Shown here: positions 7,984 through 25,189 of the stretch, in pieces | How the letters are laid out: each line of letters starts with the position of its first letter | How positions within the stretch are numbered: position 1 is the stretch's first letter | IMG/VR virus record: IMGVR_UViG_3300035150_000079 | Span: 1-52,649 of that record | Reading direction: 5' to 3' (one strand) | Length of the DNA stretch: 52,649 nucleotides | Source of the DNA: a virus | Taxonomy: Duplodnaviria; Caudoviricetes | The notes under the pieces: generated by a model | Told to the model about the DNA's origin: nothing | What the model saw: the letters and a program-made list of their open reading frames with translations, nothing else | Databases searched by the model: none | Translations under genes and position numbers: made by a program

Positions 7984-8286
7984 ATGGGTAGCGGCGGAAC
8001 AAGAGTAAGATGTGGTTCTTTTACCGGGACTGGTGCGGCTATAAGTATTACATCAGTAGGATTTCAACCCAGCAAAGTTAAACTTTATAATCTTACTACA
8101 GTTTTTACTTTAGAGTGGAATGAAGCAATGGGCGAAGACGGCGCCGGAGCACTTACTACAGGAAGTACAGGAGTAGTGACGGCTGAAACAACGGCCGGAA
8201 TTAAACCGACAGATACCGGATTTGATTTAGGAACTTCTGCTGTAAATGTTGATGGCGAAGTTATTTACTACGAAGCCCACGAATAA
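7984..8286 (+). CDS. Putative small virion (decoration-type) protein
   Basis: GGAGGT SD; GSFTGTG..ISITSVGFQP beta-rich motif typical of phage structural domains. Confidence 0.55.
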   Translation: MGSGGTRVRCGSFTGTGAAISITSVGFQPSKVKLYNLTTVFTLEWNEAMGEDGAGALTTGSTGVVTAETTAGIKPTDTGFDLGTSAVNVDGEVIYYEAHE

Positions 8287-8688: not shown

Positions 8689-8952
8689 TTGCCTTATCCA
8701 AATGAACACGCTGCTAGGCAATTAGACCCTAAACAATTTAGACGTTTTGCGCGTACTTCAAGGAATTTCCCTAAAGGCGTATCGGCAATAATAGGTTGGC
8801 TTCCTAATGGTAAAAGCAAAATACAATCGCTACGATTTAACATTAGATATTGGTCGGCCGACCAAGCTAGACGTTGGTTAAGGAAACACGGCTATAAATC
8901 TAATATAGAAGAAGCAACATCTAAACATATTAGTTGGGGGAACATACTATAA
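8689..8952 (+). CDS. Putative head-associated small basic protein
   Basis: AGGAGG SD with TTG start; PYPNEHAAR...QSLRF..W...A..WL..H; C-terminus SWGNIL resembles the scaffold tail. Confidence 0.65.
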   Translation: MPYPNEHAARQLDPKQFRRFARTSRNFPKGVSAIIGWLPNGKSKIQSLRFNIRYWSADQARRWLRKHGYKSNIEEATSKHISWGNIL

Positions 8953-10403
8953 TGGTTGTTTCGCTAAGAGATATTGAAAACGCGGAAAGAAGCGAATTAA
9001 TAGACGGATTAAGTCGTTATCGAGACATACACAACGAGTGGATTAAAAGACAAGTAATAAAGAATAATAGAATTGATATATTGGCTACTGAAGTTCTTGG
9101 ATACCAAGTCCAACCGTTTCATTTGGATATGATGAAATATCAATTCTTACACAGAGATAGCCTACAATTAGCTTTCCGAGGCGCCGGAAAAACTACTGTA
9201 TGTACAATATCTAAGGCAATACATTATTTAGTTAAAAATCCTAATTTACGATTGTTGATTGTTTCTCGAACATCCGGACACGCCGAATCTATATTAAAAG
9301 AAATAAAAGTTCACTTCGAAGACAATGAATTGTTGGCTGAAATATTCGGACGGTATTATGATCCGCGTTTGGTAAGAAAATGGGATAACGGAGAAATAGA
9401 AGTTGCGCCAAGAACTCTTAAAGCGAAAGAATCTAGTATAACAACATTAGGGGTGGGATCGCAGGTCGTTGGTAAGCATTATGATATAATACTTAGCGAT
9501 GATATAGTTGACGAAGATAATTCTCGAACAGAACACCAAAGAGAAAAAGTAAAAACATGGTATTACCAAACATTAGATCCTACGTTAGAACCTCCTGATG
9601 GTTTGATAGAACATAGAGGAGAACACCATAGATTAGGGACGAGATATCATTACGAAGATTTGTATGGTCATTTAATAAAAAATGAATTAAAAGAAGATCA
9701 CAATGTAATACCAGCGTTAGACGACAAAGGAAGAAGCCCTTGGCCGGATAAATTCCCTTCGTCTTGGTTTTTAAAAAAGAAGAGACAATCTGGAATAATA
9801 ATTTTTAACGCTCAATATCAATGCGATACAGAGGCGATGAAAGGAGAAATATTCCAGTACGATTGGTGCCAACTAATAGAACCGGATAATATACCTAATA
9901 AATTAAGAATATATATGGGGATAGATTTAGCTATTACAGAAAAAGAAAGCGGAGATAAATTTGCTATATGTATAATCGGGATGGATAAAGGCGGCAATAG
10001 ATACGTATTGGACTTTTTAGACGAACATCTTAGATTCGGCGAGCAAACAAGAGCCATAATTAAATATTATGAAAAATGGAAACCTATAAGAGGTTGTATA
10101 GAAGTTAATGCTTACCAACAAGCCCAACTCCAACACCTAAAGGATGAATACGATATAGACATAAGAATAAGGCCTGTTAACCAAATTAAAGACAAAGTAA
10201 CAAGAGCTTGGAAATTAGAACCTATTTTCGAAGATAAAAGAATGTTTTTTAAAAAAGAAGGGAATATACATCTTATGATAGAGCAATTAGTTCTATTTCC
10301 TAATCACAGATATAAAGATTTATTTGATGCTTTGGATTTGGCGGTAAGAGCTAGCAAAATAAAAAAAAGAGGTAGCAGAAAAAAGGAACCTGGATTATTT
10401 TAA
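8952..10403 (+). CDS. terL: Terminase large subunit
   Basis: Walker A AFRGAGKTT, Walker B DIILSDDIVD, GTRYH..DLY, nuclease motifs GIDLA and DLFDAL; directly precedes portal. Confidence 0.95.
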   Translation: MVVSLRDIENAERSELIDGLSRYRDIHNEWIKRQVIKNNRIDILATEVLGYQVQPFHLDMMKYQFLHRDSLQLAFRGAGKTTVCTISKAIHYLVKNPNLRLLIVSRTSGHAESILKEIKVHFEDNELLAEIFGRYYDPRLVRKWDNGEIEVAPRTLKAKESSITTLGVGSQVVGKHYDIILSDDIVDEDNSRTEHQREKVKTWYYQTLDPTLEPPDGLIEHRGEHHRLGTRYHYEDLYGHLIKNELKEDHNVIPALDDKGRSPWPDKFPSSWFLKKKRQSGIIIFNAQYQCDTEAMKGEIFQYDWCQLIEPDNIPNKLRIYMGIDLAITEKESGDKFAICIIGMDKGGNRYVLDFLDEHLRFGEQTRAIIKYYEKWKPIRGCIEVNAYQQAQLQHLKDEYDIDIRIRPVNQIKDKVTRAWKLEPIFEDKRMFFKKEGNIHLMIEQLVLFPNHRYKDLFDALDLAVRASKIKKRGSRKKEPGLF

Positions 10404-10415
10404 AAGGGAATAATT

Positions 10416-12179
10416 ATGTCTATTGATAATAATGAAGTAATAAAAATAGGTAAATCGGAAAATGCAACTAGTTCTAAGGCTAATCAAAGAATTCTTAGAA
10501 AAATGGGAGCAAGAATATTTTCCGTTGAAAAACAATCAAATAGTCCAGGCAAATCACAAAGCGTACCACAAGATCCGTTTCATACATTAGCGGCTACGGG
10601 AGATGTAATAGAACCGCCGTTTGATCTCCTCACGTTATCTATGTTGCCTGAACATTGCGGAGAAATGATACAATGTTTAGACGCCTTATCGGTAAATATA
10701 GATGGTTTTAATCACAGATTCGTTTCCAGAGTGAAAAAGGGAACAGACGGCGAAGAAATACCTGAAGAATTGAAAAAGTTAGTTAATAAAGAAAAGGTGA
10801 AATTAATTAATTTTTTCCAATATTGTACGGAAGAAACTTTCGTTGATTTCAGAAGAAAACTTAGAGTCGACTTAGAAACAACAGGTAATTCTTATTTCGA
10901 AGTCATAAGGAATTTTTCAGGAGAAATACAATCATTCGTTCATCTTCCTAGTTATCAAATGAGAATGGGAAGATTAGACGATAAACACCAATTGGTAGAA
11001 AAAAAGATTTTAAAATTACAAGAAGACGGAAGTGTTGTAGTAGATACTATGAAAGTGTTTAGTCGTTTTCGGAAATATGTACAAAGCAAAATAACACATA
11101 GACGTAATCTTTCTACAATAGGCGGTTATAAAACAAGTTGGTTTAAACAATACGGCGATCCAAGGAATTATAGCGTAGAAACGGGCGAAATTGTAGCGGA
11201 CGATTATCCGAAAGATAAATTAGCAAACGAAGTAGTACACTTTAAAATATATTCTCCTAGAACGCCTTATGGCCTTCCTAGGTATATAGGAAGTCTATTG
11301 TCTATATTCGGAGATAGGGCGGCAGAGGAAATAAATTACACTACATTTAAAAATAACAATATTCCTTCTATGGCGATATTAGTAAGCAACGGACAACTGA
11401 CCGAAGGTTCTTTGGATAGAATACAAGATTTCGTAGAAAGCCAAATACAAGGAAGCGATAATTATAGCAAATTTTTATTATTGGAAGCAGAAGGTATTAT
11501 GGAAGGAGAGGAATCTGGTCAACATATCAAAGTTGAAATGAAACCGCTTACCGAACACCAACACAAAGACGCGCTCTTCCAAAATTATAGCAAAGGAAAT
11601 CAAGACAGAGTAAGAAGGGTTTGGAGATTGCCTCCTATATTCGTAGGAAGGACCGACGAATACACAAGAACTACCGCAGAGTCTTCAAGAGTTTTAGCGG
11701 ACGAACAAATATTCGCTCCGGAGCGTAATTCGTTTGACGAATTCATTAATAGGGTCATTTTTCCTGAAATGGATATTGTTTACCATAAATACTGTAGTAA
11801 CAGCCCTAATACTACAGATAACCAACAATTAGTAAAGATACTTTCCGGTAGTGAGAAAACTGGCGGTATGACTCCGATTATAGCAAGGGAGATATTGGAA
11901 GATATATTGAGTAAGGAACTCCCTCCGTTCCCGAAAGATTTCCCGGCTGATACTCCATTTAGTCTTACTATGGCGGAAGCAGTAAAGAATAAAGCGGATG
12001 CATCCGAACCAGGCCAACAAGTTACAGCTCTGAAAGTAAAATACGAATCGGCCGAACAAATTGCAGATGTTATCAAAAACGTTGCAAGTTGGAGAACTTA
12101 TTTGGAAAGCGAATTCGAGAAAGCTATAGAAGACGAGAGAACGCCGGTAGAATTGACCGAAACTGATATGGATGTATAG
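10416..12179 (+). CDS. Portal protein (PBSX/XkdE-like)
   Basis: DLETTGNSYFEVIRN, ANEVVHFKIYSPRTPYGLP, RLPPIFVG, AESSR...EQIFAPER. Confidence 0.92.
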   Translation: MSIDNNEVIKIGKSENATSSKANQRILRKMGARIFSVEKQSNSPGKSQSVPQDPFHTLAATGDVIEPPFDLLTLSMLPEHCGEMIQCLDALSVNIDGFNHRFVSRVKKGTDGEEIPEELKKLVNKEKVKLINFFQYCTEETFVDFRRKLRVDLETTGNSYFEVIRNFSGEIQSFVHLPSYQMRMGRLDDKHQLVEKKILKLQEDGSVVVDTMKVFSRFRKYVQSKITHRRNLSTIGGYKTSWFKQYGDPRNYSVETGEIVADDYPKDKLANEVVHFKIYSPRTPYGLPRYIGSLLSIFGDRAAEEINYTTFKNNNIPSMAILVSNGQLTEGSLDRIQDFVESQIQGSDNYSKFLLLEAEGIMEGEESGQHIKVEMKPLTEHQHKDALFQNYSKGNQDRVRRVWRLPPIFVGRTDEYTRTTAESSRVLADEQIFAPERNSFDEFINRVIFPEMDIVYHKYCSNSPNTTDNQQLVKILSGSEKTGGMTPIIAREILEDILSKELPPFPKDFPADTPFSLTMAEAVKNKADASEPGQQVTALKVKYESAEQIADVIKNVASWRTYLESEFEKAIEDERTPVELTETDMDV

Positions 12180-12190
12180 GGAGGCTAATC

Positions 12191-13261
12191 GTGTGTAATG
12201 CCTGCGAGGAAACGCCCTATTCGCTTATAGATAAATCATACTTGGATTTGTTGTACGCAGATTTGTGGGTGGAAAAAGCTTTAGGATTGAAAGAAATATC
12301 TAGGATAGCCAAAGCTGAAATAAGACTTCGAAAGTATTTAGAGGGAAAGTGGAATGTTAGGAGGAATGAAGCTATTGAATCGGCTGTTGGTTTGGCTAGA
12401 AATAGGAAATCCTATAAAACAATATCATCAAACATAAACAGGATAATGAATAAATGGTCAAGAGATGTTTTACCCGTTTATAATTCTGAAATACGAGAAG
12501 TATACAAATTGGCTAGAATAGCCGGTTATAAAAAAGCCTCGGGCAAAACATCCGCATCATTACAATTCAATATCCCTAAAACAACCCCTATTAAAAAAGC
12601 AGACTCTAACATTTCTGTTGATTTTGATTTGGTAGATGAAAATACAATGGAAGCTTTAGAAAACAGAAATATATTTTGGGTTGGCGAACATTACGATAAA
12701 AATATATCCGATTCGGTAAGAGATACGGCCAAATCTGTTATGGTAGAAGCTGGCGAATCAACTTCGTTAGCAGGCCAATTAATGGGGAAACGTATCAAAG
12801 AGATTTTAAGTAAATTTTCAACTCCTGGTGGATTTGTTGGAACAGAAAAACAATATTTCGAAGGATTGGTTTCTAATGCTATGACAGTAGGAAGAGTGTA
12901 TGGACAAATGCGCTCTTTTTCACAGATAGGTATAACAAGGTATGAGATTGTAAATCCTGGCGGAAGTAGGATGTGCGAAGTATGTGCTAATCTACAAGGA
13001 AAAACTTTCGACATAAAACAAGGCTTAGAACAAATAACTAAAGAATTTAAATCTTCATCTCCAGAAGATATTAAAAAGATACATCCGTGGTTAGCTAGTT
13101 CTAAAGTAATAGGCAAGAGTTCCGATTCTTTAGCGTCAATGGGTCTTTCTTTGCCTCCATATCATTTTAGATGTAGATGCACCATAGACGTATCAAGCGA
13201 AGTCGAATCGTTTGAGGATTTAACGCCTATTCCGTTCCCTGTTCCTTCTAAAGCAGCATAA
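12191..13261 (+). CDS. Head morphogenesis protein (Mu gpF/SPP1 gp7-like)
   Basis: RMCEVCANLQGK and PPYHFRCRC motifs; located after portal. Confidence 0.88.
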   Translation: MCNACEETPYSLIDKSYLDLLYADLWVEKALGLKEISRIAKAEIRLRKYLEGKWNVRRNEAIESAVGLARNRKSYKTISSNINRIMNKWSRDVLPVYNSEIREVYKLARIAGYKKASGKTSASLQFNIPKTTPIKKADSNISVDFDLVDENTMEALENRNIFWVGEHYDKNISDSVRDTAKSVMVEAGESTSLAGQLMGKRIKEILSKFSTPGGFVGTEKQYFEGLVSNAMTVGRVYGQMRSFSQIGITRYEIVNPGGSRMCEVCANLQGKTFDIKQGLEQITKEFKSSSPEDIKKIHPWLASSKVIGKSSDSLASMGLSLPPYHFRCRCTIDVSSEVESFEDLTPIPFPVPSKAA

Positions 13262-13414: not shown

Positions 13415-14023
13415 TTGAGCAACTCAATTAAAAGAACGGCAATTCCATCTGAAGAAAAAAATAAAAGGGTTGTAACGGCTAAGGTTATTGGTGAAAACGA
13501 TTTGGCTTCTTCAGGAAAGAAAAATCCTGCTTCTGCGGGAAATAGCGGGATACCTTTAGAAGAAGACGAAGACGAAAAACGTAAAAAGAAAAAAGAGATT
13601 AACGAAAGCGTTAACAAAAGCATATTTGTTCCGATAATAAAATCTAGCAAACAAGAAAGAACTATAACCGGAGTGGTTTTACAACCTGAAGTAGTAGACG
13701 CCCAGGGTGATATTATGGACAAGGATGTAATACGCAAGGCAGCACACCGATTCCTATCTAAGTACAATAAGGCAACCGAATTAGGTCTGATGCATAAATA
13801 TTTTGGTGACACAGGATTCGAATTGTATGAATCATGGGTTGCTCCACAAGATGTTGTGATTAAAGACGCTTTGGTCAAAGAAGGTTCTTGGCTTATGACC
13901 GTATATGTTGGAAAAGATAAAATATGGAAAATGGTAAATGATGGAAAACTCAAAGGATTTTCTATTGGCGGCAAGGCAAAAGCCAAGAGTATAAGTAATG
14001 AAAAAGAGGGACTAGATGGCTAA
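13415..14023 (+). CDS. XkdF-like prohead serine protease (catalytic core)
   Basis: TGVVLQPEVVDAQGD..I.KAAHRFL, LMH, ESWV, GSWLM, IWKMVNDGKLKGFSIGG. Confidence 0.88.
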   Translation: MSNSIKRTAIPSEEKNKRVVTAKVIGENDLASSGKKNPASAGNSGIPLEEDEDEKRKKKKEINESVNKSIFVPIIKSSKQERTITGVVLQPEVVDAQGDIMDKDVIRKAAHRFLSKYNKATELGLMHKYFGDTGFELYESWVAPQDVVIKDALVKEGSWLMTVYVGKDKIWKMVNDGKLKGFSIGGKAKAKSISNEKEGLDG

Positions 14024-14840
14024 TGTTCCAAAAAGAAGATTCGTAGAATTGAGTGTAGACGAGGTTTCAATAGTTGATAGTCCAGCAAATGAAGAACATT
14101 TCATTGTTATTAAAAATTTACAGGATTTACAGGAGGTAAACATGCCCGGAGAAAAGAACGAAGAAACCACCAAGGATGTTGTAAAGAATGACGACACACA
14201 ACAGAACCCGGAAAAGATTCCCGTTGAAGTCGATAAGGCTACCGATGAAGCTGTTGCGAAAGCGATGGAACAGGTTGCTGATTTAATCAACAACATCTCG
14301 AAATCTTTTGATAATGTTGGCGAAAAGGCTGGCGACAAAGACGAACAAGTAAGCAAAAAGAAAGAAGGAGAAGAGGAAAAGAAAGAAGGGGGAGAGGAAA
14401 AGAAAGAAGTACAAACGAATAAGAATGCCGAGAAAATCGACGATAATATTCGAGAAGCGGCATCAGAGGCGGTGTACGAAGCAATAGCAAAAGCCAAGCG
14501 TTTTACGCCAACACGAGAAGCAGCTTTGAAGGCCGCCATAGAAACGCTGAATAAGTTAGCAAAAGAGCTTGGCATGCAAGAGATACCGATCGGTTCTTCT
14601 CCGTCTACAAACACGCCGTCCGGTACTACGTTTGGTTCGAGTTCGATTACCAAATCCATGGAAGACTTTGTAGCAAAGTTATCAGCGGGCATGGAAAAGA
14701 TAGTGGAAACCACCAAGAACCTTGACAGCAGGATGGAGAAAATTGAAAAGATGGCTGCTCCGTCGAAAAGCGTAGAAGGCGACGGAGAAACTGATAACAA
14801 AGTAGAAAAGAATCAAAATTTTTGGAAGGGTGTTATTTAA
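14016..14840 (+). CDS. Capsid scaffolding protein with N-terminal protease-derived segment; internal start at 14142
   Basis: Begins ELSVDEVSIVDSPAN, followed by a charged helical body ending FWKGVI; AGGAGGT SD at 14131 precedes the in-frame ATG 14142. Confidence 0.82.
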   Translation: MANVPKRRFVELSVDEVSIVDSPANEEHFIVIKNLQDLQEVNMPGEKNEETTKDVVKNDDTQQNPEKIPVEVDKATDEAVAKAMEQVADLINNISKSFDNVGEKAGDKDEQVSKKKEGEEEKKEGGEEKKEVQTNKNAEKIDDNIREAASEAVYEAIAKAKRFTPTREAALKAAIETLNKLAKELGMQEIPIGSSPSTNTPSGTTFGSSSITKSMEDFVAKLSAGMEKIVETTKNLDSRMEKIEKMAAPSKSVEGDGETDNKVEKNQNFWKGVI

Positions 14841-14894
14841 TTGTCCGTCGTAAACAAATTTACACGTAACAATAGAAACCGATAGGAGATAAAA

Positions 14895-16079
14895 ATGCCT
14901 GATATTTCAAACGAAGAATTAGTCCAGAAAGCAGTTATTACGGCGGATGCCTTAGCCAGCAGTGGCAAATTAAATACGGCACAGTCGAATCGTTTTATTG
15001 ATTATGTGATCGATGAAACTGCGTTAAAAGATAACGCAAGAATCATTCGGTTCAGAAATGAAGATTTGGATATCGATAAAATCGGCGTTGGCACAAGGTT
15101 GGCTGTTCCGAAATCAGAGGCTAGGGATCCTGGTATCCGTAGAGGCGTTACGACCTCTAAAATCACATTAACTCCTAAAGAGATTATGGTTCCTTTTGAG
15201 ATTGGCGATACGTTCCGAGAGATAAACATCGAAGGGGATAGCATTGAAAATCACATTATCTCTATGATGGCTCGTCAAGCGGCAAATGACATAGAGGAGT
15301 TATACATCAACGGTAACACGCTAGGTCCGGCAGAGATTGAAGGGAATATAGTCCCCGGCGGAAGCGATACTCAATATGTCAAAGATAGCTATTTGGCTTT
15401 ATTTGATGGTTGGTTAAAGCTTCTCGATAGCGCCAATATCGTTGACGCAGAAGGAGCCAACATCGGTCTTAGTGTTCTTGGTAAAACGTTTAGAGCGATG
15501 CCGACTAAATTCCGTCGAATACTGAAAGATATGCGTTATTATATGGCGCCTGATTTGGAGCAAATTTACTACGAGAAACTTTCCACCAGAGCTACTTCGT
15601 TGGGCGATTCGGTGGCAGGCGGAATGGGACATAGACCGTTTGGTATTCCTATAGTCGGCGTACCTTTGCTTGATTTCTTGCCTTCCGTAACAGAACATAA
15701 CGTATTCTCGTCTGGCGAGGCGTATTCGTTAGCAAACGCTCCTGTTCAAAACGTTATTGTTACTCCGGCTACTTTGGATGATACCCCTACTACTCCATAC
15801 GTAGAAGACACTGATTATACATTAGACGAAGCCAACGGCATAGTAACCGATATCGGGGGAGCACTTGGTACCGCTAAAATAACATACGATGCGAATCCTC
15901 AAATTCTTCTTACACACATGAACAACTTTATCGTCGGCATCGGAAGAGACGTTAGAATCGAGAAAGATCGAGACATCTTTAAGGGCGTTAATCAATACGC
16001 TATAACGTTAAAAGTTGCTGTACAAATTGAAGAACTTACCGCAGCTGTAAAAACTCGTAACGTAGGACAAGGCGTCTAA
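14895..16079 (+). CDS. Major capsid protein (HK97 fold, XkdG-like)
   Basis: GKLNTAQSNRFIDYVID, DIDKIGVGTR, NIEG, ANDIEEL.INGN, FDGWLK, ILLTHMNNFIVGI.RDVRIE; follows the scaffold gene. Confidence 0.92.
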   Translation: MPDISNEELVQKAVITADALASSGKLNTAQSNRFIDYVIDETALKDNARIIRFRNEDLDIDKIGVGTRLAVPKSEARDPGIRRGVTTSKITLTPKEIMVPFEIGDTFREINIEGDSIENHIISMMARQAANDIEELYINGNTLGPAEIEGNIVPGGSDTQYVKDSYLALFDGWLKLLDSANIVDAEGANIGLSVLGKTFRAMPTKFRRILKDMRYYMAPDLEQIYYEKLSTRATSLGDSVAGGMGHRPFGIPIVGVPLLDFLPSVTEHNVFSSGEAYSLANAPVQNVIVTPATLDDTPTTPYVEDTDYTLDEANGIVTDIGGALGTAKITYDANPQILLTHMNNFIVGIGRDVRIEKDRDIFKGVNQYAITLKVAVQIEELTAAVKTRNVGQGV

Positions 16080-16082
16080 CCG

Positions 16083-16115
16083 ATTAGGATTGGTATTTAT
16101 TCTCCCAATCCTAAT
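16083..16115 (+). terminator. Hairpin directly after the capsid gene (terminator or mRNA stabiliser)
   Basis: attaggattgg (16083-16093) pairs with ccaatcctaat (16105-16115); weak U-tract. Confidence 0.65.
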
Positions 16116-16145
16116 TCACCAATAAGTCATTGATTGGAGGCAAAA

Positions 16146-16562
16146 ATGACAATTAGAGCAAGAGTGGAATTAATAGGCAGTTTTACTCATAGTAGTAAAT
16201 GGAGGACATTCCGTAAAGGAAATCCTCAAATTCTTACAAATCCCGCAGAGATACAATATTACAAAAACCAGCCTAGTTTTAATGTTGTATTGTTGGATTC
16301 TAAAACAAAAGAAAAAGTTGTAAAAGAGGTAATCAAAAAGGTGAAATTAGAACCGCCTCAAGATGAAGTCGAAGAGGCAGAAGGATACGAAGAAGAGGAA
16401 GAAGAATACGAAGAAGAAGATGATGAGGAATCCGGTTATACAGAAGGGATGCTCAAAGATTTTAAGAAATCACAATTGAGAGCCCTTGCTAATGATTTGG
16501 AATTAGATATCGAAGGAACAAAAAAAGAATTGATAGCTAGGATCATAGAGGCTACCAATTAA
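16146..16562 (+). CDS. Protein with acidic linker and C-terminal SAP/Rho-N-like domain
   Basis: GGAGG SD; poly-Glu tract; LKDFKKSQLRALANDLELDIEGTKKELIARI. Confidence 0.75.
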   Translation: MTIRARVELIGSFTHSSKWRTFRKGNPQILTNPAEIQYYKNQPSFNVVLLDSKTKEKVVKEVIKKVKLEPPQDEVEEAEGYEEEEEEYEEEDDEESGYTEGMLKDFKKSQLRALANDLELDIEGTKKELIARIIEATN

Positions 16563-16596
16563 TCGTAAATGTTCCTCGTGATAGATGGAGGGTAAA

Positions 16597-16932
16597 ATGC
16601 CGTTAATAAAAGTGCAAGTCCGCAAAAATATCCACCCTCGTCAAATTGAATTCGGCAATAACGTAGAACGTTCCAAACCTGGAGCTTTATATTTTGTTCC
16701 GGGCACTGTTAAAACAATAACGTTAGACGAATACAATTGGATAGAGAAATACGACAAGAATTTTTTCAAATTTCTTATTGTATTGCCTTCGGATACTAAA
16801 AAAACTCGTTCGGAACGAAAAAACAAGCCTATTCCTGTTCATAAGTCAAAAACTGTTACTAGTGTTGAAAAAAATAGCTCTAAAACAGATGTTGGTAGCA
16901 AATTCATTCCCGATAAAAAGGGGAACGAGTAA
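16597..16932 (+). CDS. Hypothetical protein
   Basis: GGAGG SD before ATG 16597. Confidence 0.65.
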   Translation: MPLIKVQVRKNIHPRQIEFGNNVERSKPGALYFVPGTVKTITLDEYNWIEKYDKNFFKFLIVLPSDTKKTRSERKNKPIPVHKSKTVTSVEKNSSKTDVGSKFIPDKKGNE

Positions 16933-16983
16933 ACAATTCTAATATATTACGCCTTGTTTGGTTTTAGCCAATAAGGATTTCAA

Positions 16984-17421
16984 GTGATAAGAATAAATAC
17001 AAAATATGGGAATACATACAAATTTGATTTGGATGATAGCGACCAAGCACGCAAGCTTATAGGGTTATTAGAAGACCAAAATTTCCAAAATATAATAACC
17101 GGAATAACTTTGTTGCGTACTTACAAACGTAGGCATAGATGTTCTAACGATAAATGTAAACGTACATCTAAGATGATATGTCCGAAGTGCGGTGAACTTG
17201 ATGATGATTATTTTAGATACACTAGTCATTGTACGTTGATTAGACCGCATCTAGAAGGCGTGGAATTCGGAATAGAAAAGGCGCACAAAATAGATGATGA
17301 AGAGGTAATCATCGGAGAAAAATTACTTTGTAAGGCCCGGGGAATAAATTTATCTGTCACACAATATAAACGCCAACCTGCTTCTAGAATAATTTTGGCC
17401 TCAAATGAAACAGATATATAA
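16984..17421 (+). CDS. Hypothetical protein with zinc ribbon
   Basis: CSNDKC...CPKCG. Confidence 0.6.
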   Translation: MIRINTKYGNTYKFDLDDSDQARKLIGLLEDQNFQNIITGITLLRTYKRRHRCSNDKCKRTSKMICPKCGELDDDYFRYTSHCTLIRPHLEGVEFGIEKAHKIDDEEVIIGEKLLCKARGINLSVTQYKRQPASRIILASNETDI

Positions 17422-17460
17422 TTTCGTAGACGAATATCGTCGAATAATAGGAGTTTAGAT

Positions 17461-19134
17461 ATGGCAATTGGTGATGATTTCTCTATCGATTCAAGTAAAA
17501 ATATTAGATACGAAGGGGCGGCACACGAGGTAGCAGGCGCAGGATATTATACCGTTTTGGAATTCCATAGATGGTTACAAGATTTAGCCGATGACGCTTC
17601 TTCAACAGGAGATGATTTATTAGATATAACTAAGCCTCCGCCATCTGATAAACAATACGACACGATTATAACTCTTGCTAATGGTTATAACATAGACCAA
17701 GAAGCGTCAGAACACCTTTATGGCGGTTCGATAATTCAGAACGATGGAGACGACATATGGGATGGAATAGTGAATTACGGGACCGAAGGAATACACATAG
17801 AAATAATGCAAAACGGTTCTATATTCGCTAATGACTTCTGGAATTCGGTTCCAGACGGAGAGAGCACAAAAGGTTTGAATAGGGATACAGCTTCGGGAAT
17901 ATCTCACCAATTTATGTTACAAGTTAGAGATAGCGGAACTGATATAGACGGAAGACGTCTGATAGGTATGAATCGCGAATTCAACTACACATACGGTGAA
18001 TTCAAAATAAACGGAACGGGAAGAGGGGTTAACGTCTTAGCACTTACACAGACCAGCGATTTAAATAATCAAACTGCGGCAGGAACAGTTTCCGGTTGGA
18101 CCAATATAACCAATACAGAGGGTTATCGCGCTATAGATGTTAACGGAGATAGTACTGACGAATATTACTATTCTGAATGGAATAGAGACACTCAATCCAT
18201 AAATGATTTATACGAACGTATAAAATGGTTAACTAGAAGAGGGACTAGTTCTACTGTGTACGGATTGAATGGCGATTTATTTCGTGGAATAACACATGAA
18301 ATAAACGTGGATACCCCTACAGGGACTTTCAACGCAGTAGAACCTGTGTCTTGGTCTACGGGCACCGGACAAATGCTTGCGATAAACAGCACTACGGCGC
18401 CTACGAAGATGTGGATACAGATACTTACGGGGGTAGCGCCTACCGATGGCGTAACAATTACCGGTACCGACTCGTCAGCTACGTGTGATGTTGATACTAC
18501 GGTAACGGAAAGATCAATATCAATAGCAGGCCCTTCGGGAATACAATCGACAGGAACGGCAATAATAGGACCGTATGGTCTTGGCATAGAAGCGGCCGAT
18601 CTTTCTGCTGATGATAGACTTACTGATTTAACTGATACACAAAGAACGCCTCCTAATAACGTTACATTTTATGTGTTAGGTTTGGTTTCAGGAGAGGATT
18701 ACGTCCTAGTAGGTCCGGAATCAGGTGGCGTAATAGAAGAAGATCAATTATCTGTAAGTGGAACTTATTCAGGAGCAGAAACTACATTTACCGTACAAGA
18801 GTCCATTCCTGGTGACACTCCTACTACAGGAACTTTTAGAGTTTGGAATGGTTCAACTTATTCGAGAGTAACCTATACCGGTTGGTCAGGCTCTTCTTTT
18901 ACTGGTTGTTCGGGAGTTCCGGCTTGTTCTAACGGGGATAACGTATGGATATCTTATATAGATAAATTAGCGGATTCTACATCATTATCGTTTACGGGAG
19001 TTTATCAAAGCGATAGAAGCTTGATTATCAAAGCAAGAGATGGAGGGGGAACGCCAATTAAACCGTTCGAATCTACGGCAACATTAGGAACTTCAGGCGG
19101 TTCAATTACTATCATACGTACTTCGGATGCATAA
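17461..19134 (+). CDS. Large virion structural protein (appendage/fibre-like)
   Basis: 557 aa, rich in Thr/Gly/Ser/Asp and beta-strand character; located in the morphogenesis operon. Confidence 0.7.
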   Translation: MAIGDDFSIDSSKNIRYEGAAHEVAGAGYYTVLEFHRWLQDLADDASSTGDDLLDITKPPPSDKQYDTIITLANGYNIDQEASEHLYGGSIIQNDGDDIWDGIVNYGTEGIHIEIMQNGSIFANDFWNSVPDGESTKGLNRDTASGISHQFMLQVRDSGTDIDGRRLIGMNREFNYTYGEFKINGTGRGVNVLALTQTSDLNNQTAAGTVSGWTNITNTEGYRAIDVNGDSTDEYYYSEWNRDTQSINDLYERIKWLTRRGTSSTVYGLNGDLFRGITHEINVDTPTGTFNAVEPVSWSTGTGQMLAINSTTAPTKMWIQILTGVAPTDGVTITGTDSSATCDVDTTVTERSISIAGPSGIQSTGTAIIGPYGLGIEAADLSADDRLTDLTDTQRTPPNNVTFYVLGLVSGEDYVLVGPESGGVIEEDQLSVSGTYSGAETTFTVQESIPGDTPTTGTFRVWNGSTYSRVTYTGWSGSSFTGCSGVPACSNGDNVWISYIDKLADSTSLSFTGVYQSDRSLIIKARDGGGTPIKPFESTATLGTSGGSITIIRTSDA

Positions 19135-19136
19135 TT

Positions 19137-21791
19137 ATGGCCAATTATATCGCTACAACAGACATGACTTTAGAAGCGGCAATTGCCGCAGGTCCTATGA
19201 ACGATGGCGATAATCTCACCATAAATAACGGAGCGGTCATAACATGTACGCAAACACCAAGTATATTATTGGGAAGAAGGACAATTAATGACGGGAAGTT
19301 GTTTATAGACGGGAAAAATATTTCTAGCGGAAATGTTATAAATTTTTGTTGTGAATACCAAGATGCTTCGTATATTTATTTCAAAGGAACTTTGGAAGTC
19401 GACGGAGATTGGTATTCTATAGGAACTACGAACGGAACGGATAGCCAAACTTTTAATTTAACTTCGTATTGGGGAGGAACGCTCGAAGATTTAATACCTG
19501 CTATATGGGTTGAAACGGGCAGAAGAATTGATTTCGATAATGATACCGGAGAAATCCCCGAGGTAGACGATTGGGTATATAAAACATCAGACGATTTAGT
19601 GATGGGTAGAATTGTAGAAGTTCAATCCACTTATATCGTCGTAAAATTCCTTACCGGAAGTTTAGCAGATAATGACTCAATAGAGGTAAGAAAAGTAGTC
19701 GATAATGAAGGTCCAGATTATCAAATTTCTTGGACAGCCCAAGTAGCTAACGCAAGCGGCGATATAAAAGAAGCAGGAATATATCAAGAATTTGCTAATG
19801 TTATTGCGAATAGTACAAGTTACATCGCTACGTTCAATCATCACTTAGGGGGTTTTGTATTTGAACATACTTTTCAATCCAATACTTTAACGATGGGATC
19901 AAGTACTGGCGGCGGTTTTGTTCCTCCATCAGGGTGTGATGTAAAAGTTCCTAATGTACATTTTTCAACTTCTAATTTAACAAGTTATGCTAGCGGCGAT
20001 ACCTATCAAGACGGCTCCAATTTTGAAAATAATCGCGATGAAATAATTATGTCAGGCGCCGGTAAAGTTGAGTTAAGTATTTGTAATGTCGGTAGCTCTT
20101 TTTTTGGTACTTCTGGTGCTTATTATTTCTATGCTTATTATGTTGGAGCACCAATTTCTTTAGGTTCCGCAGCGTGTTTACAGAAATCCATATACAATAA
20201 TTGTGTTATAATAAATGATCCGTTCGCATTGGCATCAAATTCGAATTCAGCAATTGGCATAGTAGACTGTGGTAATGGTGCTGATATAATAGATTGTTTA
20301 GTTGTACAAGCGTACGCTTATTGGATGTATCTTGGAGCGGATACTTCATCCAACGTATTGGTGAAGAATTGTATTTCTGTATTAGGTGGAAGTACTTATG
20401 GAGCAAATACGTATTTATTTTGTTATTATGCTAGAAGGTGTGAAAATTTTACAATAGATAATTGTGTCGGAATATCCGCCGATATACATTCTAATGCCAA
20501 AGTTTTAGTTCTTAGAGATACGAATGACGCTACGGTAACAGATGTTATTGCAGCGTCTTCCCAAGATTACCAAAATCCTACTTTAACAACCAACGCAATT
20601 GCAATGGAAAATGCTAAAGACGTATATTTGTGTGGTTGGAAAACATTGGGACCAGCAGGGTATAGAGTATTTTATTTCACCGATTGTAATAGAATAAAAT
20701 TTAGGTGTTTAGGAAGAATTGAATCTCCGGATGATGTAAATAACAAGAGTAGAGAATTATTCACTCTTGTAGGAAGTTGTGTTGACATAGATATATCTAG
20801 GATATGGGCGGAAAATTCTACTTATAATTTTTTAGCGCCCCTTCCGACAACAGCAATAGGAACTTTGATTGGTAATTGTAGTTACGATTATGATCAAACA
20901 TTTGATATTGCTGGAGTAGATACTGTTGTAAAAGGTTTGCATGCTGGTTCAGGAAGCATCGGGGCGCCAGGCGGTATAAACGCATCTTATCCGGGCGATA
21001 TTGGCATACAAATTCACGATGGATTTAAATCTGATACATCGGGATTTATTGTTTGCGCATTAATACCTCCTTCCGATAATAATAATTATATCACTATTGT
21101 TAACGGCAGTCCTGAATTTAATGGCGACGGTTCTTTAAATATGTCCAACGGCGACATAATAGAAGTGGAACAAAGTTATTTTTCAAAAGGCCATATTTCG
21201 TTTACCGGAAATATAACATCCATGTTAGGGTCTGGAGCTATCTCTTGGGGAACAGACGAATGGACGGACGTTACAGTAGAATTTCAATACGACACGGGAA
21301 GCGGTTGGAACGGAAGTTGGTTGAATGCAAGAACTGCGGGAAATTGGACTGGTATAAGTAGTATTTCAAGCGGAATAAAATTGAAATATAGATTTACCGC
21401 TACCGATGATGTAACGGATATGTTTATGTTTATTACGGAAACGACCACATCTTTGTCTGCACAGGCAGCAAACTTACATCCTATAGACCAAAGTTATGTA
21501 ACGGTAAAAGTTATAGCAAAAGATTCTAGCGATTACTCGTTGATAGAAAACGCTAGAGTTTATTTGGTTGCTGACGCTGGAGGTCCTTTATCACAAGGAA
21601 CGTTGATATTTAATCAATTAACGAATGCTAGCGGTTACGTTCAAAATACTGAATATCTTTATACGGCCGACCAACCAGTAGTAGGTTGGATAAGAAGAGC
21701 TACGACGCCTACGTTGTATAAGCCCACGGACATAGTAGGAACTATAACGAGTTCAGGTTTGACTATAACAGGTATAATGGTGCCAGATTAA
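19137..21791 (+). CDS. Large virion protein with probable right-handed beta-helix
   Basis: 884 aa; periodic Asn/Cys-stack segments (IYNNCV, IIDCL, VKNCI, IDNCV) typical of parallel beta-helices. Confidence 0.7.
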   Translation: MANYIATTDMTLEAAIAAGPMNDGDNLTINNGAVITCTQTPSILLGRRTINDGKLFIDGKNISSGNVINFCCEYQDASYIYFKGTLEVDGDWYSIGTTNGTDSQTFNLTSYWGGTLEDLIPAIWVETGRRIDFDNDTGEIPEVDDWVYKTSDDLVMGRIVEVQSTYIVVKFLTGSLADNDSIEVRKVVDNEGPDYQISWTAQVANASGDIKEAGIYQEFANVIANSTSYIATFNHHLGGFVFEHTFQSNTLTMGSSTGGGFVPPSGCDVKVPNVHFSTSNLTSYASGDTYQDGSNFENNRDEIIMSGAGKVELSICNVGSSFFGTSGAYYFYAYYVGAPISLGSAACLQKSIYNNCVIINDPFALASNSNSAIGIVDCGNGADIIDCLVVQAYAYWMYLGADTSSNVLVKNCISVLGGSTYGANTYLFCYYARRCENFTIDNCVGISADIHSNAKVLVLRDTNDATVTDVIAASSQDYQNPTLTTNAIAMENAKDVYLCGWKTLGPAGYRVFYFTDCNRIKFRCLGRIESPDDVNNKSRELFTLVGSCVDIDISRIWAENSTYNFLAPLPTTAIGTLIGNCSYDYDQTFDIAGVDTVVKGLHAGSGSIGAPGGINASYPGDIGIQIHDGFKSDTSGFIVCALIPPSDNNNYITIVNGSPEFNGDGSLNMSNGDIIEVEQSYFSKGHISFTGNITSMLGSGAISWGTDEWTDVTVEFQYDTGSGWNGSWLNARTAGNWTGISSISSGIKLKYRFTATDDVTDMFMFITETTTSLSAQAANLHPIDQSYVTVKVIAKDSSDYSLIENARVYLVADAGGPLSQGTLIFNQLTNASGYVQNTEYLYTADQPVVGWIRRATTPTLYKPTDIVGTITSSGLTITGIMVPD

Positions 21792-23584
21792 TGTCTATTA
21801 GTGTAAATTGGTTAACAAAAGTTATAACGATACCTAAAGCCGATTTAACTTTGATACAATCAACTCCTAGTGAGATATACGAACTCAATTTAAATGAATT
21901 TAGATATTGGCTACACGACGAACAAGATAGCGTTGAAGGAATAATAAATCCTGAAATATTTACGCATAATACCGAAGTTGAATTAGGGGGAATAACTTTC
22001 GCAAGGGTAATAAGAATAATAAATGGTTATACAATTACTTTTGAAAATGGTATGTATGCTGTAAATTTAATAGGTGCTAATAGTAATGTTGCTGATGTAA
22101 CGAATGTCAACAACGTTTCCGTAAGGCCCTATAATTCAGCAGGATTAATATCGTCTCCAGACATAGAATATTCCTCATTTAACGAAAGAGTTACTATAGA
22201 TATTATTAATGGTTCTTCTGGAACTTTATATCCTAAAGGGACTATGAGAGAACCTGTCAATAATTTAAGCGACGCAAAAATAATAGCACAATATAGAGGT
22301 TTTGAAACATTATTTGTAATAGGAAATATAACTTTTGTTGATACCGACAATATAGACGGATTCACTATCATAGGCCAGAATCCAGTAAAGAGCACATTTA
22401 ATCTAACTGAAGGTTTGTCTTCGGTAGGATGTGAATTCATAGAAGCTACAATTGACGGAGTTTTAGATGGAAATTCCACAATAGACAATTGTATAGTAGA
22501 CGATCTAACTTACATAGAAGGAATAATAAAAAATAGTATTTTGCGTGGCACGATAGTTTTAGCAGGCAATACAACTACCAACATATTAAATTGTTACGAC
22601 GGAATTGCTGGAGACGATAAACCCATAATAGACATGGGAGGTTCCGGTCAAGGTTTAACTGTTGGAGGTTATAGCGGAGAATTGGAAATAAGGAATAAAG
22701 ACGGAGAAGATAAAATTTCCATAGATTTAGTATCTGGAGAAATAGTTTTAGATTCTACTGTAACCAACGGAGAAATAGACATAAGGGGCGTTGGTAGATT
22801 AATAGATAATAGTTCAAGTGGAGCTATTGTTAAATGGAATGCTCTTATTTCCAATGATAACTATGATGGGGTGGTGATGGTCAACACAGTATCGGGAGTT
22901 CCAGGAACGCAATATCCTCGCGGAACTTCTAAGATGCCTGTTGATAATCTTATTGATGCAAAAGTAATAGCTGATAACCTAGGCATAAAGACTCTGTTGA
23001 TAACCGGCGATGTTGCGTTAGAGGAAAATTTTGAAGAATTTACGTTTTCGGCTTCACAACCAACGCACGCAACACTTGATCTTAACGGAATGGCGCTTAC
23101 AAAATGTGGAATAAATTCTATGACAGTAATAGGAGAATCAATCGGATTTTTTGTTGCTGAGGATTGTTATTTCCCAAACGGCTCGTTAAATATTAATGCT
23201 TCTATGGAAAGTTGCGTGTTAAATGGGGAAATTAGCGTCATCACCGGAGGACAATTAAGATGTATAAAATGTTCCTTCCCCGGAACAGATACGATATTGG
23301 ATTTAAGTGGAGAAGTTACTGTTAGTTTGGCGGATATAGTCGGTAGCATAAAAATAACGAATCTTGATAATCCTTTATCCATAGTTACTATTACAGGAAA
23401 TTTCAGCGCCGATATAGATAGTACTTGCGTTAGCGGAATCGTTAAAGCCGCTGGTATAGGAATTTTAAATGATAGCTCTTTGGGAACTTTAGTCGTTGAT
23501 AAAGTTCTTCCCGGAAGTTTAAGTATATCGCCAACCAACGATAGTGTTGGTTCGCCGTTCGATCCGAATGGAACGTATCCGTAA
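21791..23584 (+). CDS. Virion protein with internal ~228-aa duplication (beta-helix-like)
   Basis: GTLYPKGT..EPVNNLSDAKIIA is repeated as GTQYPRGT..MPVDNLIDAKVIA. Confidence 0.7.
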   Translation: MSISVNWLTKVITIPKADLTLIQSTPSEIYELNLNEFRYWLHDEQDSVEGIINPEIFTHNTEVELGGITFARVIRIINGYTITFENGMYAVNLIGANSNVADVTNVNNVSVRPYNSAGLISSPDIEYSSFNERVTIDIINGSSGTLYPKGTMREPVNNLSDAKIIAQYRGFETLFVIGNITFVDTDNIDGFTIIGQNPVKSTFNLTEGLSSVGCEFIEATIDGVLDGNSTIDNCIVDDLTYIEGIIKNSILRGTIVLAGNTTTNILNCYDGIAGDDKPIIDMGGSGQGLTVGGYSGELEIRNKDGEDKISIDLVSGEIVLDSTVTNGEIDIRGVGRLIDNSSSGAIVKWNALISNDNYDGVVMVNTVSGVPGTQYPRGTSKMPVDNLIDAKVIADNLGIKTLLITGDVALEENFEEFTFSASQPTHATLDLNGMALTKCGINSMTVIGESIGFFVAEDCYFPNGSLNINASMESCVLNGEISVITGGQLRCIKCSFPGTDTILDLSGEVTVSLADIVGSIKITNLDNPLSIVTITGNFSADIDSTCVSGIVKAAGIGILNDSSLGTLVVDKVLPGSLSISPTNDSVGSPFDPNGTYP

Positions 23585-23602
23585 AAATAAAAGGAGAATA
23601 GC

Positions 23603-24067
23603 ATGGAAATGGATATCCTGGTTTATAAACAAAATATTTCAATGGTAAATGGAGAAAGTATTGATGGTTATATTAGAAAATTGAATATAGCGTCCCGCGA
23701 TTATACTATGGGAAAATTAAATATCACAAAAGGTAATGGTGGGGCTTGGACAGTAGAAGTTTATAGCGATAAAGTTGTTATGGGTGTTTATAAAGGCGAA
23801 GAATCCACCAAATATCATATGATAAAATATGGTAGAGATAAAGACGGAACTTTTAATTTTGGCGATATGATAGAAGTTGAACGGGTAACAACATACAAAC
23901 CCAAGACTGATATGCAAATAAACAAAACAGAAGATAGTTTGATATCGTCGCCTAATTCCGAGAAAGGCTGTTCAAGCGGATACAAAACTAGAAAAGCCTT
24001 AGGAGAACCAATAGAATTTAACGGTTGGATAGAAACTGAAAAAAGTTTCTGGACCGGAGTTATTTAG
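23603..24067 (+). CDS. Hypothetical protein ending in scaffold-like FWTGVI (candidate internal head protein)
   Basis: AAGGAG SD; C-terminus EKSFWTGVI versus scaffold EKNQNFWKGVI. Confidence 0.65.
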   Translation: MEMDILVYKQNISMVNGESIDGYIRKLNIASRDYTMGKLNITKGNGGAWTVEVYSDKVVMGVYKGEESTKYHMIKYGRDKDGTFNFGDMIEVERVTTYKPKTDMQINKTEDSLISSPNSEKGCSSGYKTRKALGEPIEFNGWIETEKSFWTGVI

Positions 24068-24079
24068 TAGGAGGGTAAT

Positions 24080-25189
24080 ATGCCAACGTTAGCCAGAGGC
24101 CAAGAAAATACGCCGTCTATTTTAAATTGGTTTATATCTATAAACGGCGTATTGACTGATGCCTATGAAGTTGGTTATCGAATATATGATATAACAGGAG
24201 GGCTTCCAGGTACGCAAATATTTCCTGTAACTCCGGGCGATTGGGAGACGGTAAGTAGTGGAACCGGACATTTTAGCGTTGGTTCTTATTACGCGTATGA
24301 TAATTCTGCCGATAACGGTTATACTCCAACAATTACGGCAAGTTTAGGAACACATAGAATATATTGGCGATGGAAAATAAATTTAGGTTCTTCGTATCAA
24401 TCCGACGCCGAAGATTTTGAAGTAATAGTGGAGTCTTCAGGTTCTTCGGTAGATACATACATAAGCATACAAGATGTAAGAGACGCAGGAGTAACAGACG
24501 AAACAGAATTTCCAGATGCTGTGGTATTATCTAATATAGAATTGTGGCAAGCAGTATTGGAAAGAGCTTGTAGGCAATGGTTTGTTCCAAAAACTATGAT
24601 ATTGAATATAGATGGAACCGATTCGGATACTTTGCATTTCGGCGTCCCTATAATAGAGATAGATTACATCAAAATAAATAATAGCGACGATGAATTGGAT
24701 ACAAATTTATATAAAGTTTATAACGCAACAACATATCCTGACGATAGAAGAAATCCGAGAATTAAATTAGTGAATTCTAGATATTGCGTGGATATTTTTA
24801 CTGCTCCGATGGGTTATGGTAGTTTGTTGTTTAGGAAAGGAAGACAAAACCAAGAAATAAAAGGGACTTTTGGATTTGTTGAAGAGGATATGAGCGTCCC
24901 TAAACCAATACAAAGAGCGCTATTGAAATTAGTTGTAGAAAAAATGACTAAACCTGTATACGTAAGCGATCCGGCTACGACCCCAACGCCTCCTCCGCCA
25001 ATAATAGGAACTCTTTTAGAAGAATGGACGGACGGGCATAGAAAAAAATACGGAACTTCAGGAGCCGCTATATCGAAACGTTCTCCGTATTTAACGGGGA
25101 TAACTGATGATCAAGAAATAATAGAGATAATAAAAATGTATCGCGCTCCAATAGGATGCGCAACGCCTGCTAATCCAACATATAGGTAA
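24080..25189 (+). CDS. Head-tail adaptor with N-terminal extension
   Basis: DTYISIQDVR...LERACRQWF...GFV....VPKPIQRALLKLV pattern; first gene of the neck cluster. Confidence 0.7.
   Translation: MPTLARGQENTPSILNWFISINGVLTDAYEVGYRIYDITGGLPGTQIFPVTPGDWETVSSGTGHFSVGSYYAYDNSADNGYTPTITASLGTHRIYWRWKINLGSSYQSDAEDFEVIVESSGSSVDTYISIQDVRDAGVTDETEFPDAVVLSNIELWQAVLERACRQWFVPKTMILNIDGTDSDTLHFGVPIIEIDYIKINNSDDELDTNLYKVYNATTYPDDRRNPRIKLVNSRYCVDIFTAPMGYGSLLFRKGRQNQEIKGTFGFVEEDMSVPKPIQRALLKLVVEKMTKPVYVSDPATTPTPPPPIIGTLLEEWTDGHRKKYGTSGAAISKRSPYLTGITDDQEIIEIIKMYRAPIGCATPANPTYR

Follow-up and report, generated by a model that had tools for sequence, protein, structure and literature searches.

The scaffolding protein of a tailed virus (Duplodnaviria; Caudoviricetes), known from the IMG/VR record IMGVR_UViG_3300035150_000079, ends in a short peptide that also closes two small proteins encoded in the same record, one of 154 amino acids (aa) and one of 87 aa, hereafter P87. 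The entire record, 52,649 bases long, was analyzed and is called the window below. We consider it probable that this peptide, or tag, is a free C-terminal docking peptide, which the small proteins have in common with the scaffold and by which they would be co-assembled into the procapsid. A first-pass annotation of the same DNA had proposed that these proteins enter the capsid by means of the scaffold's tag. Much of this proposal held, as the tag is real and conserved, lies on tails predicted to be disordered and always comes last, and one of the two small domains occurs within procapsid polyproteins of other phages. The notion of a cargo set fared less well, since the tagged proteins, two to three per genome, conserved and syntenic, look more like core head components, and fit these or internal proteins at least as well as a variable cargo. 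The three tags are as follows:

14808-14837 (stop 14838-14840), + strand: tag of the scaffold, K-N-Q-N-F-W-K-G-V-I; the protein ends ...VEKNQNFWKGVI, and FWKGVI with its stop occupies 14820-14840.
24041-24064 (stop 24065-24067), + strand: tag of the 154-aa protein, K-S-F-W-T-G-V-I; the protein ends ...TEKSFWTGVI, and FWTGVI with its stop occupies 24047-24067.
8923-8949 (stop 8950-8952), + strand: tag of P87, K-H-I-S-W-G-N-I-L; the protein ends ...TSKHISWGNIL.

Inspection of the sequence found the C-termini as the first-pass annotation had described them, including a Lys located 3-5 residues before the Trp, the exact distances being 5 residues in the scaffold, 3 in the 154-aa protein, and 4 in P87. 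In a six-frame scan of the whole window, covering open reading frames (ORFs) of at least 30 aa, only these three ended in W-x-[GN]-[VIL]-[ILF]. The expected number of tagged ends among 62 non-overlapping + strand ORFs was 0.005 for this pattern, which is that of the first-pass annotation, and 0.06 for the looser W-x-x-[VILM]-[ILVFM]. The probability of finding three or more was 2e-8 and 3.5e-5, respectively, and only 1 of 20,000 residue shuffles reached three tagged ends. Expected counts and shuffles ruled out a chance origin of the tag. The scaffold and the 154-aa protein were the sole pair of genes with at least four of the last six residues in common (5/6). A recent DNA copy could be ruled out as well, because the codons of the two tags differ at synonymous sites (TTT/TTC, GGT/GGA, TAA/TAG), indicating that the likeness has been kept at the protein level.

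We then compared the families by profile alignment with hhalign. Between the scaffold family and that of domain A, the folded part of the 154-aa protein, only the last 11 columns aligned (E 5.9e-5, probability 65%), so the first-pass annotation was correct in calling the two proteins otherwise unrelated. It had also considered P87 a weaker match, and as a matter of fact only the last 5-10 columns of the 87-aa family aligned, with no significance (E 0.07 against the scaffold family and 0.02 against the 154-aa family). The N-termini of the three tagged proteins are mutually unrelated, and the peptide they have in common is C-terminal.

Conservation of the tag in relatives

A search with the major capsid protein (MCP) of the window returned 30 related viral loci (L001-L030), with MCP identities of 51-100% over the best segment. 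All these relatives are IMG/VR-type uncultured viruses. A scaffold ending in W-x-x-[VILM]-[ILVFM] was present in 28 of the 30 loci. The two exceptions were L028, whose scaffold ends KSLFTGVV, and L030, where the scaffold lies on the contig outside the locus and ends SALWSGIL. Among the 24 distinct scaffolds with the strict tag, the Trp was found in all and the Gly in 22. Their alignment contained four conserved islands, namely an N-terminal motif, a mid motif, a helix ending in I-E-K, and the final W-x-G-V-[LI]. A separate alignment of 20 scaffold homologues had KS.W in its consensus.

The tail was equally found in all nine close database relatives of the 154-aa protein. A profile search of 1.84 billion representatives extended the domain-A family to 344 representative clusters at E ≤ 1e-3. 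In the top 150, the strict tag was present in 91, a near-variant in 30 (Trp replaced by F, a hydrophobic residue replaced by A, or 1-4 additional residues), and neither in 29. The consensus tail of the family reads G-W-x-x-T-x-K-S-[FL]-W-x-G-V-L, and the Lys of the tag is almost invariant (K147 in at least 90% of 82 domain-A family sequences). Fifteen domain-A ORFs were present in the window and L001-L030 taken together, 10 with the strict tag and 5 with variants (DFAGVL, SIFKGLI, and KKTLWG, the latter three times in near-identical contigs). As for the 87-aa protein, 16 of 20 homologues ended in W-x-x-[IVL]-[LI], one more did so with one extra residue, and three had no tag.

We also scanned the whole contigs of five relatives (45-116 kb; ORFs of at least 40 aa), using a DNA pattern blind to Leu at the second-last position. 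Nine distinct tagged ends were obtained: four scaffolds, three A-type proteins, one P87-type protein, and one other ORF, which is probably due to chance. Each genome thus has only two to three tagged proteins, and these are conserved and syntenic. The first-pass annotation had suggested scanning the genome and its relatives, and had held that the idea would fall if the motif were not conserved; in the window only the three ORFs carry it, and it is conserved in homologues of all three proteins. A search with domain A for additional loci gave six, one of which was new, and a tblastn search of 50,697 phage records found no domain-A relatives.

Predicted folds and domain orders of the tagged proteins

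Models of the two small proteins were obtained with AlphaFold 2 (AF2) and suggested the following layout:

23603-24067, + strand: 154-aa tagged protein, with an alpha+beta domain (domain A, residues ~1-105), a linker (108-139), and the tagged tail.
8689-8952, + strand: 87-aa tagged protein P87, pI 11.3, with a predicted BRX-like domain (domain B, residues 1-75) and a disordered tail (~77-87).

In the model of the 154-aa protein, domain A consists of a helix and four strands. The pLDDT, the per-residue confidence of the model, was 84-96 in 10-residue blocks over residues 11-90, and fell below 50 at residues 108-139 and 151-154. For P87, the mean pLDDT was 88, with values below 50 at residues 80-82 and 84-87. 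In both proteins, a confident fold is followed by a low-confidence tail bearing the tag, which therefore appears to be held on a flexible leash.

Domain A had no family in Pfam, PHROGs, or NCBIfam. Its likeness to the cystatin/NTF2/VirB8 arrangement was at background level only (best VIA Z 7.6), a Foldseek search of the PDB gave matches at E ≥ 0.29 only, and the ESM Atlas yielded no named family. In BFVD, one match was found (E 1.8e-4), to an uncharacterized protein of 518 aa; two rows named "Prohead protease" (E ~1e-2) were too weak and were not used. Longer fused forms of domain A were looked for among proteins of 453-2000 aa, the only lengths covered, and none was found, which makes this a weak negative. 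The median pI of the family is 8.7 (n=149). In the window, L008, L017, and L020, the domain-A gene is located directly before a homologue of a 369-aa gene (24080-25189 in the window).

For domain B, there was a candidate fold. P87 itself scored 19.9 bits against the Pfam family BRX (PF08381), under the cut-off of 24.5, and its homologue in L028 scored 28.5 bits, over the cut-off; precomputed PF08381 annotation was present on 3 of 19 P87 homologues. Among 48,161 chains of solved structures, the best match of the P87 model was the BRX domain of the plant protein RLD2 (6l0v_A), with Z 5.6, the next being 4.0. This Z is under the tool's caution line of 8, and the superposition covered 51 of 61 residues with an rmsd of 2.5 and 20% identity. 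Still, the structural match agrees with the sequence scores of P87, which are sub-threshold, and of the L028 homologue, which are above threshold. Domain B may thus be described as BRX-like on the strength of the model and these scores, in which case phages carry a BRX-like domain, a name that comes from the plant protein BREVIS RADIX. The family is basic (median pI 10.3, n=19), and it has an invariant N-terminal stretch, P-Y-P-N-E-H-A-A-R.

A tblastn search with P87 gave matches in Synechococcus phages S-CBS1 and S-CBS3 and Roseobacter phages CRP-821, -822, and -831, and every one of them fell in a gene bearing the annotation "major capsid protein" or "major head protein". Inspection of two of these genes, S-CBS3 gp04 and CRP-821 gp39, showed that they encode polyproteins of 836 and 974 aa, in which domain B is followed by an S78 protease domain and then by an HK97-type capsid domain:

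L031, 3629-6139: polyprotein of S-CBS3 with the BRX-like domain.
L032, 3335-6259: polyprotein of CRP-821 with the BRX-like domain.

In BFVD, the P87 model likewise matched part of a protein of 414 aa named "Prohead protease" (E 1.3e-7, TM 0.86, 36% identity), and parts of two further proteins of ~470 aa. The position of domain B inside protease-capsid polyproteins indicates that, in those phages, it is delivered covalently to the procapsid interior. The P87 gene lies directly upstream of the large terminase gene and overlaps it, a position that suggested a small terminase. We did not favor this assignment, because the domain is found within protease-capsid polyproteins and fused to domain A.

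The relatives revealed that the folded domains have been shuffled. The order was A, B, tag in L018; B, A, tag variant in L017 and in L026, L027, and L029; A, C, tag in L028 and in the database proteins P0005 and P0006; and C, A, tag in L022. In every domain order seen, the tag came last. We take this shuffling with a constant final tag as the strongest comparative argument that sequence offers for a free docking peptide. Some homologues of the small proteins have acidic, scaffold-like linkers.

Domain C, the third shuffled domain, is about 90 aa long (...F-I-N-N-L-P-D-A-A-F-A...L-P-H-H...H-L-R-N-A-L-A-R...) and was found at 12631-13317 in L028 and 20331-21044 in L022, besides P0005 and P0006. 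It had no Pfam or PHROG family.

The head module of the window

All genes of the window are on the + strand, and the tRNA count is 0. A terminal repeat was looked for and is absent, and the cluster of the 87-aa protein is also present on a contig of 65,498 bases. The record may therefore be an incomplete genome, and more tagged genes could exist beyond it. The head genes are arranged as follows:

8934-10403, + strand: large terminase, from a profile-library match.
10416-12179, + strand: portal, from a profile-library match.
12191-13261, + strand: SPP1 gp7/MuF-like minor head protein, from a profile-library match.
13415-14023, + strand: core of an XkdF-type prohead protease, untagged (PF14550, E 1.1e-28, 100.1 bits for a cut-off of 24, profile positions 5-124 of 126).
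14016-14840, + strand: scaffolding protein, 274 aa, acidic (pI 4.8), named from its position between the XkdF-type protease and the MCP.
14055-14114, + strand: conserved N-terminal motif of the scaffold, V-x-E-x-S-x-V-D-x-x-A-N...F-x-V-x-K (residues 14-33), from conserved alignment columns.
14895-16079, + strand: MCP of the XkdG/phrog_1623 type, pI 4.75 (phrog_1623, E 4e-75).

Further downstream come neck, sheath, baseplate hub, and tape measure genes. Together, the head and tail genes point to a myovirus-like phage with a PBSX-type head. The protease passed the gathering threshold of PF14550 across the whole domain, and the scaffold had no family in Pfam, PHROG, or NCBIfam. In tblastn searches, the MCP matched annotated major capsid proteins of Vibrio phage 1 ("similar to PBSX protein/capsid protein"), Clostridium phage CP3 ("PBSX protein xkdG"), and Drs3 (gene xkdG). 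The closest capsid proteins of cultured viruses were ~30% identical and came from Streptomyces, Vibrio, Clostridium, Pseudomonas, and archaeal viruses. Searches by sequence found no relatives of solved structure for either the MCP or the XkdF protease.

The protease and the scaffold appear to be connected in another way. The protease ORF terminates soon past the motif GFSIGG, and its stop overlaps the start of the scaffold by 8 nt in another frame. In Genie2 gp51, a fused XkdF protein, a scaffold-type motif follows ~30 residues past GFSIGG on the same polypeptide, and in the fused protein of Clostridium phage CP3, a scaffold-type N-terminal motif stands upstream of the protease core. The arrangement in two genes also occurs in Vibrio phage 1 (VHS1051/1052) and Pseudomonas phage PA_L9 (gp45/46). 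The XkdF protease thus appears, from these sequences, to be split between two genes in the window, and the N-terminus of the scaffold may bind or complete the protease, so bringing the untagged protease into the head. A possibility was that a frameshift fused the protease to the scaffold and thereby tagged it. This was set aside, because the spacing of the two ORFs varies among relatives from a 20-nt overlap to a gap of more than 100 nt, with no conserved arrangement.

Several other features of this region may be recorded. Residues ~270-336 of the MCP (15702-15902) form an Ig-like insertion matching Ig domains of tail proteins (phrog_807, E 1e-6; NF052337, E 1.6e-5, which is below its cut-off). 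Directly after the capsid gene, a small protein (16134-16562) combines a long stretch of acidic residues with a SAP domain at its C-terminus (PF02037, E 5e-7). Between the capsid gene and the 154-aa gene, three large ORFs of 557, 884, and 597 aa (17461-23584) had no family match. In L017, the domain-A gene lies only ~1.2 kb past the capsid gene, and this short spacing suggests that the three ORFs were inserted into the head module. Upstream of the terminase region, a 100-aa protein (7984-8286) ends in ...Y-Y-E-A-H-E, and its counterparts by position in L004, L008, L010, L018, and L022 end in ...W-E-A-[HY]-E or a similar sequence. This C-terminus is conserved too, but has no relation to the tag.

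Proposed docking to the capsid protein and its alternatives

How the tag might work can be put as follows. The last ~8-11 residues, K-x(2-4)-[FLIM]-W-x-[GDN]-[VI]-[LI]-COOH, would be the peptide by which the scaffold docks to the shell. Two non-scaffold proteins, one made of domain A and the other of the basic, BRX-like domain B, would bear the same peptide on a free C-terminus behind a flexible tail. As the procapsid assembles, both would take the positions that the scaffold has on the interior surface of the XkdG-type capsid protein and, using these, would be built into the head in sub-stoichiometric amounts. The small proteins would be passengers on the scaffold's docking peptide, with domain B made as a free-standing protein that has the scaffold tail instead of a polyprotein attachment. 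By analogy with the scaffolds of 80alpha, P22, and herpesviruses, the receptor of the tag is likely to be the capsid protein. The first-pass annotation had added release by cleavage at the conserved Lys. This is plausible, and the Lys could equally be a binding contact. HK97 cuts its own capsid protein after a Lys. Among the papers listed by a literature search, none was found that gave a cleavage specificity for XkdF-type proteases.

Several observations weigh against this proposal. The tag of P87 is weak on profile comparison alone (the E values of 0.07 and 0.02 given above), it is absent from 3 of 20 P87 homologues, and 29 of the 150 representatives of domain A carry no tag, not even as a near-variant. 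The tags of scaffold and partners showed no clear co-variation within genomes, little variation being available for this check: the scaffold of L028 has F and its partners W, and the reverse was observed in L025 and L017. Distant cultured phages with the same capsid type have only a loose, non-terminal motif at the end of their fused protease-scaffold proteins (CP3 ...KSVFNGLFGGNQE, Genie2 ...KWGGHFLSVSDISR). Together with the lack of domain A in the phage records searched, this indicates that, within what was searched, the tag in its clean terminal form is peculiar to this uncultured clade. Binding of the tag to the capsid protein is itself argued from analogy. Lastly, two to three conserved and syntenic tagged proteins per genome fit assembly factors as well as cargo.

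The last point leads to a different function for the small proteins, which we hold to be rather unlikely but which deserves the most attention among the alternatives. The tag would still dock to the shell, and the small proteins would be auxiliary scaffolding or assembly factors, for instance, regulators of the protease or of nucleation, degraded and expelled before DNA packaging. Such a role would suit their low number, their conservation and their synteny, with the domain-A gene before the homologue of the 369-aa gene and, in the window, P87 directly before the terminase. It would also suit the acidic, scaffold-like linkers of some homologues and the cystatin-like arrangement of domain A, though its Z was at background level. 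Their charge, however, argues otherwise: with a pI of 11.3 for P87 (family median 10.3) and a median of 8.7 for the domain-A family, they are unlike the acidic scaffold (4.8) and nearer to DNA-associated internal proteins. Moreover, domain B is a passenger within the polyproteins of other phages.

A role of the tail in proteolysis seems improbable to us. As a recognition or docking signal, or a cleavage site, for the XkdF-type prohead protease, it would mark three substrates, in line with the nearly invariant Lys located 3-5 residues ahead of the Trp and with the fact that the scaffold must be degraded; the untagged protease, besides, needs some route into the head. Yet removing merely 6-8 terminal residues leaves unexplained why the C-terminus is free in all domain orders, and where structures have been solved, it is the coat protein to which scaffold C-termini bind. 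Protease binding would be better assigned to the separate N-terminal motif of the scaffold, which appears to be part of the protease fold.

Binding of the tail to a different partner is very improbable, be it the portal, the BRX-like domain of P87, or a host factor that would read the tail, for example, as a degradation signal; the presence of the tail on the scaffold would then have nothing to do with coat binding. Hydrophobic C-termini can act as degrons, and domain B could be a peptide receptor, since the title of the 6l0v entry describes a BRX domain in complex with a peptide motif from a different protein. Domain B was not found, however, in loci L008, L020, and L022, which reach up to 10 kb on either side of the capsid gene and contain tagged scaffolds and A-type proteins, and a scan of the whole L022 contig with the tag pattern gave only the scaffold and the C+A protein, so that B cannot be the general receptor. 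Nothing was found pointing to any other partner.

The proposed docking of the scaffold and the two small proteins to the capsid protein by a common C-terminal peptide can be compared with several known systems. Its closest precedents are the cases of scaffold-tail sharing in 80alpha/SaPI1 and in herpesviruses; a conserved scaffold C-terminal motif and a second, unrelated protein bearing it, which characterize this kind of system, were both found here. The 80alpha scaffold binds the N-arm of the capsid protein with its last 16-21 residues, and CpmB of SaPI1 copies this tail, a helix-and-hook with the motif RIIK (PMC5644958). The likeness is that a second, different small protein has the extreme C-terminal motif of the scaffold, with 80alpha gp46 and SaPI1 CpmB binding the same capsid-protein site (PMC5644958). 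In contrast, CpmB belongs to a hijacking satellite and alters the capsid size of the phage, whereas the proteins described here, known from sequence, are the phage's own and conserved across its relatives, and the motif is K..FW.GV[IL] instead of RIIK. In herpesviruses, scaffolds (UL26.5) bind the MCP via C-termini shared with the protease precursor (UL26) and are released by a cut at the M site (PMC12474303). There too, a C-terminal tail is common to more than one internal protein, and the cut made just upstream corresponds to the dock-then-clip logic of the first-pass annotation. Unlike the separate and unrelated genes of the window, nested in-frame genes account for the shared tail of herpesviruses.

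Other addressing signals are more distant. The C-terminus of the P22 scaffold suffices, as an "SP tag", to load fused enzymes into the procapsid (PMC6387247). That tag is man-made, whereas the one described here is apparently natural and, at ~8-11 residues, much shorter. As a helical domain, the SP tag runs to tens of residues. Short peptides also address T4 internal proteins and P1 DarB to the head, those of T4 being removed by the prohead protease (PMC9024508, PMC12991175). These are N-terminal, unlike the tag, no leader of ~10 residues being the common element here, and in the passages cited they are not described as copies of the coat-binding end of the scaffold. For HK97, work of Duda, Oh, and Hendrix in 2013 is said to have found that the C-terminal part of the maturation protease directs the protease into the prohead. 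In HK97, the signal resides on the protease, and the delta domain of the capsid protein reportedly acts as scaffold, whereas here the protease is untagged and it is the scaffold and two small proteins that bear the tag. Encapsulin cargo consists of a folded protein, a flexible linker, and a short C-terminal peptide that binds inside an HK97-fold shell. The first-pass annotation had called the tag "encapsulin-like", and this holds for the architecture, since the AF2 models have a short C-terminal peptide past a flexible linker on a folded protein. It does not hold for the shell, since the window encodes a phage head that packages DNA, complete with terminase, portal, MuF-like protein, protease, scaffold, sheath, and tape measure, so that the two are alike by layout only.

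Capsid-addressing peptides and a scaffold tail shared by a second protein were thus already known. What appears new, judging from the sequences, is that unrelated small proteins of the phage itself have a copy of the 8-11-residue scaffold C-terminus, kept across hundreds of clusters and portable between domain arrangements. Besides SaPI1 CpmB, we found no phage-encoded non-scaffold protein described with the scaffold's C-terminal peptide, in a literature coverage that excludes most subscription journals. Tentatively, and with considerable doubt, the idea may be taken further: W-x-x-[IV]-[LI] might act as a portable peptide that docks to XkdG-type capsids on their inner face, alone sufficient to load any protein with a free flexible end. 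A large uncultured clade, in which the domain-A family alone counts 344 clusters, might use it to package small basic proteins, which would be clipped at the Lys and enter the host together with the DNA.

Should docking to the capsid protein be borne out, the tag would be a minimal natural address label, ~8-11 residues long, for loading phage heads. Two unannotated families, domain A with its 344 clusters and the phage BRX-like domain, would then be head-internal proteins, and passenger domains of polyproteins and free tagged genes would be two routes to the same place. The tag also makes scaffold recruitment in XkdF/XkdG-type heads directly testable.

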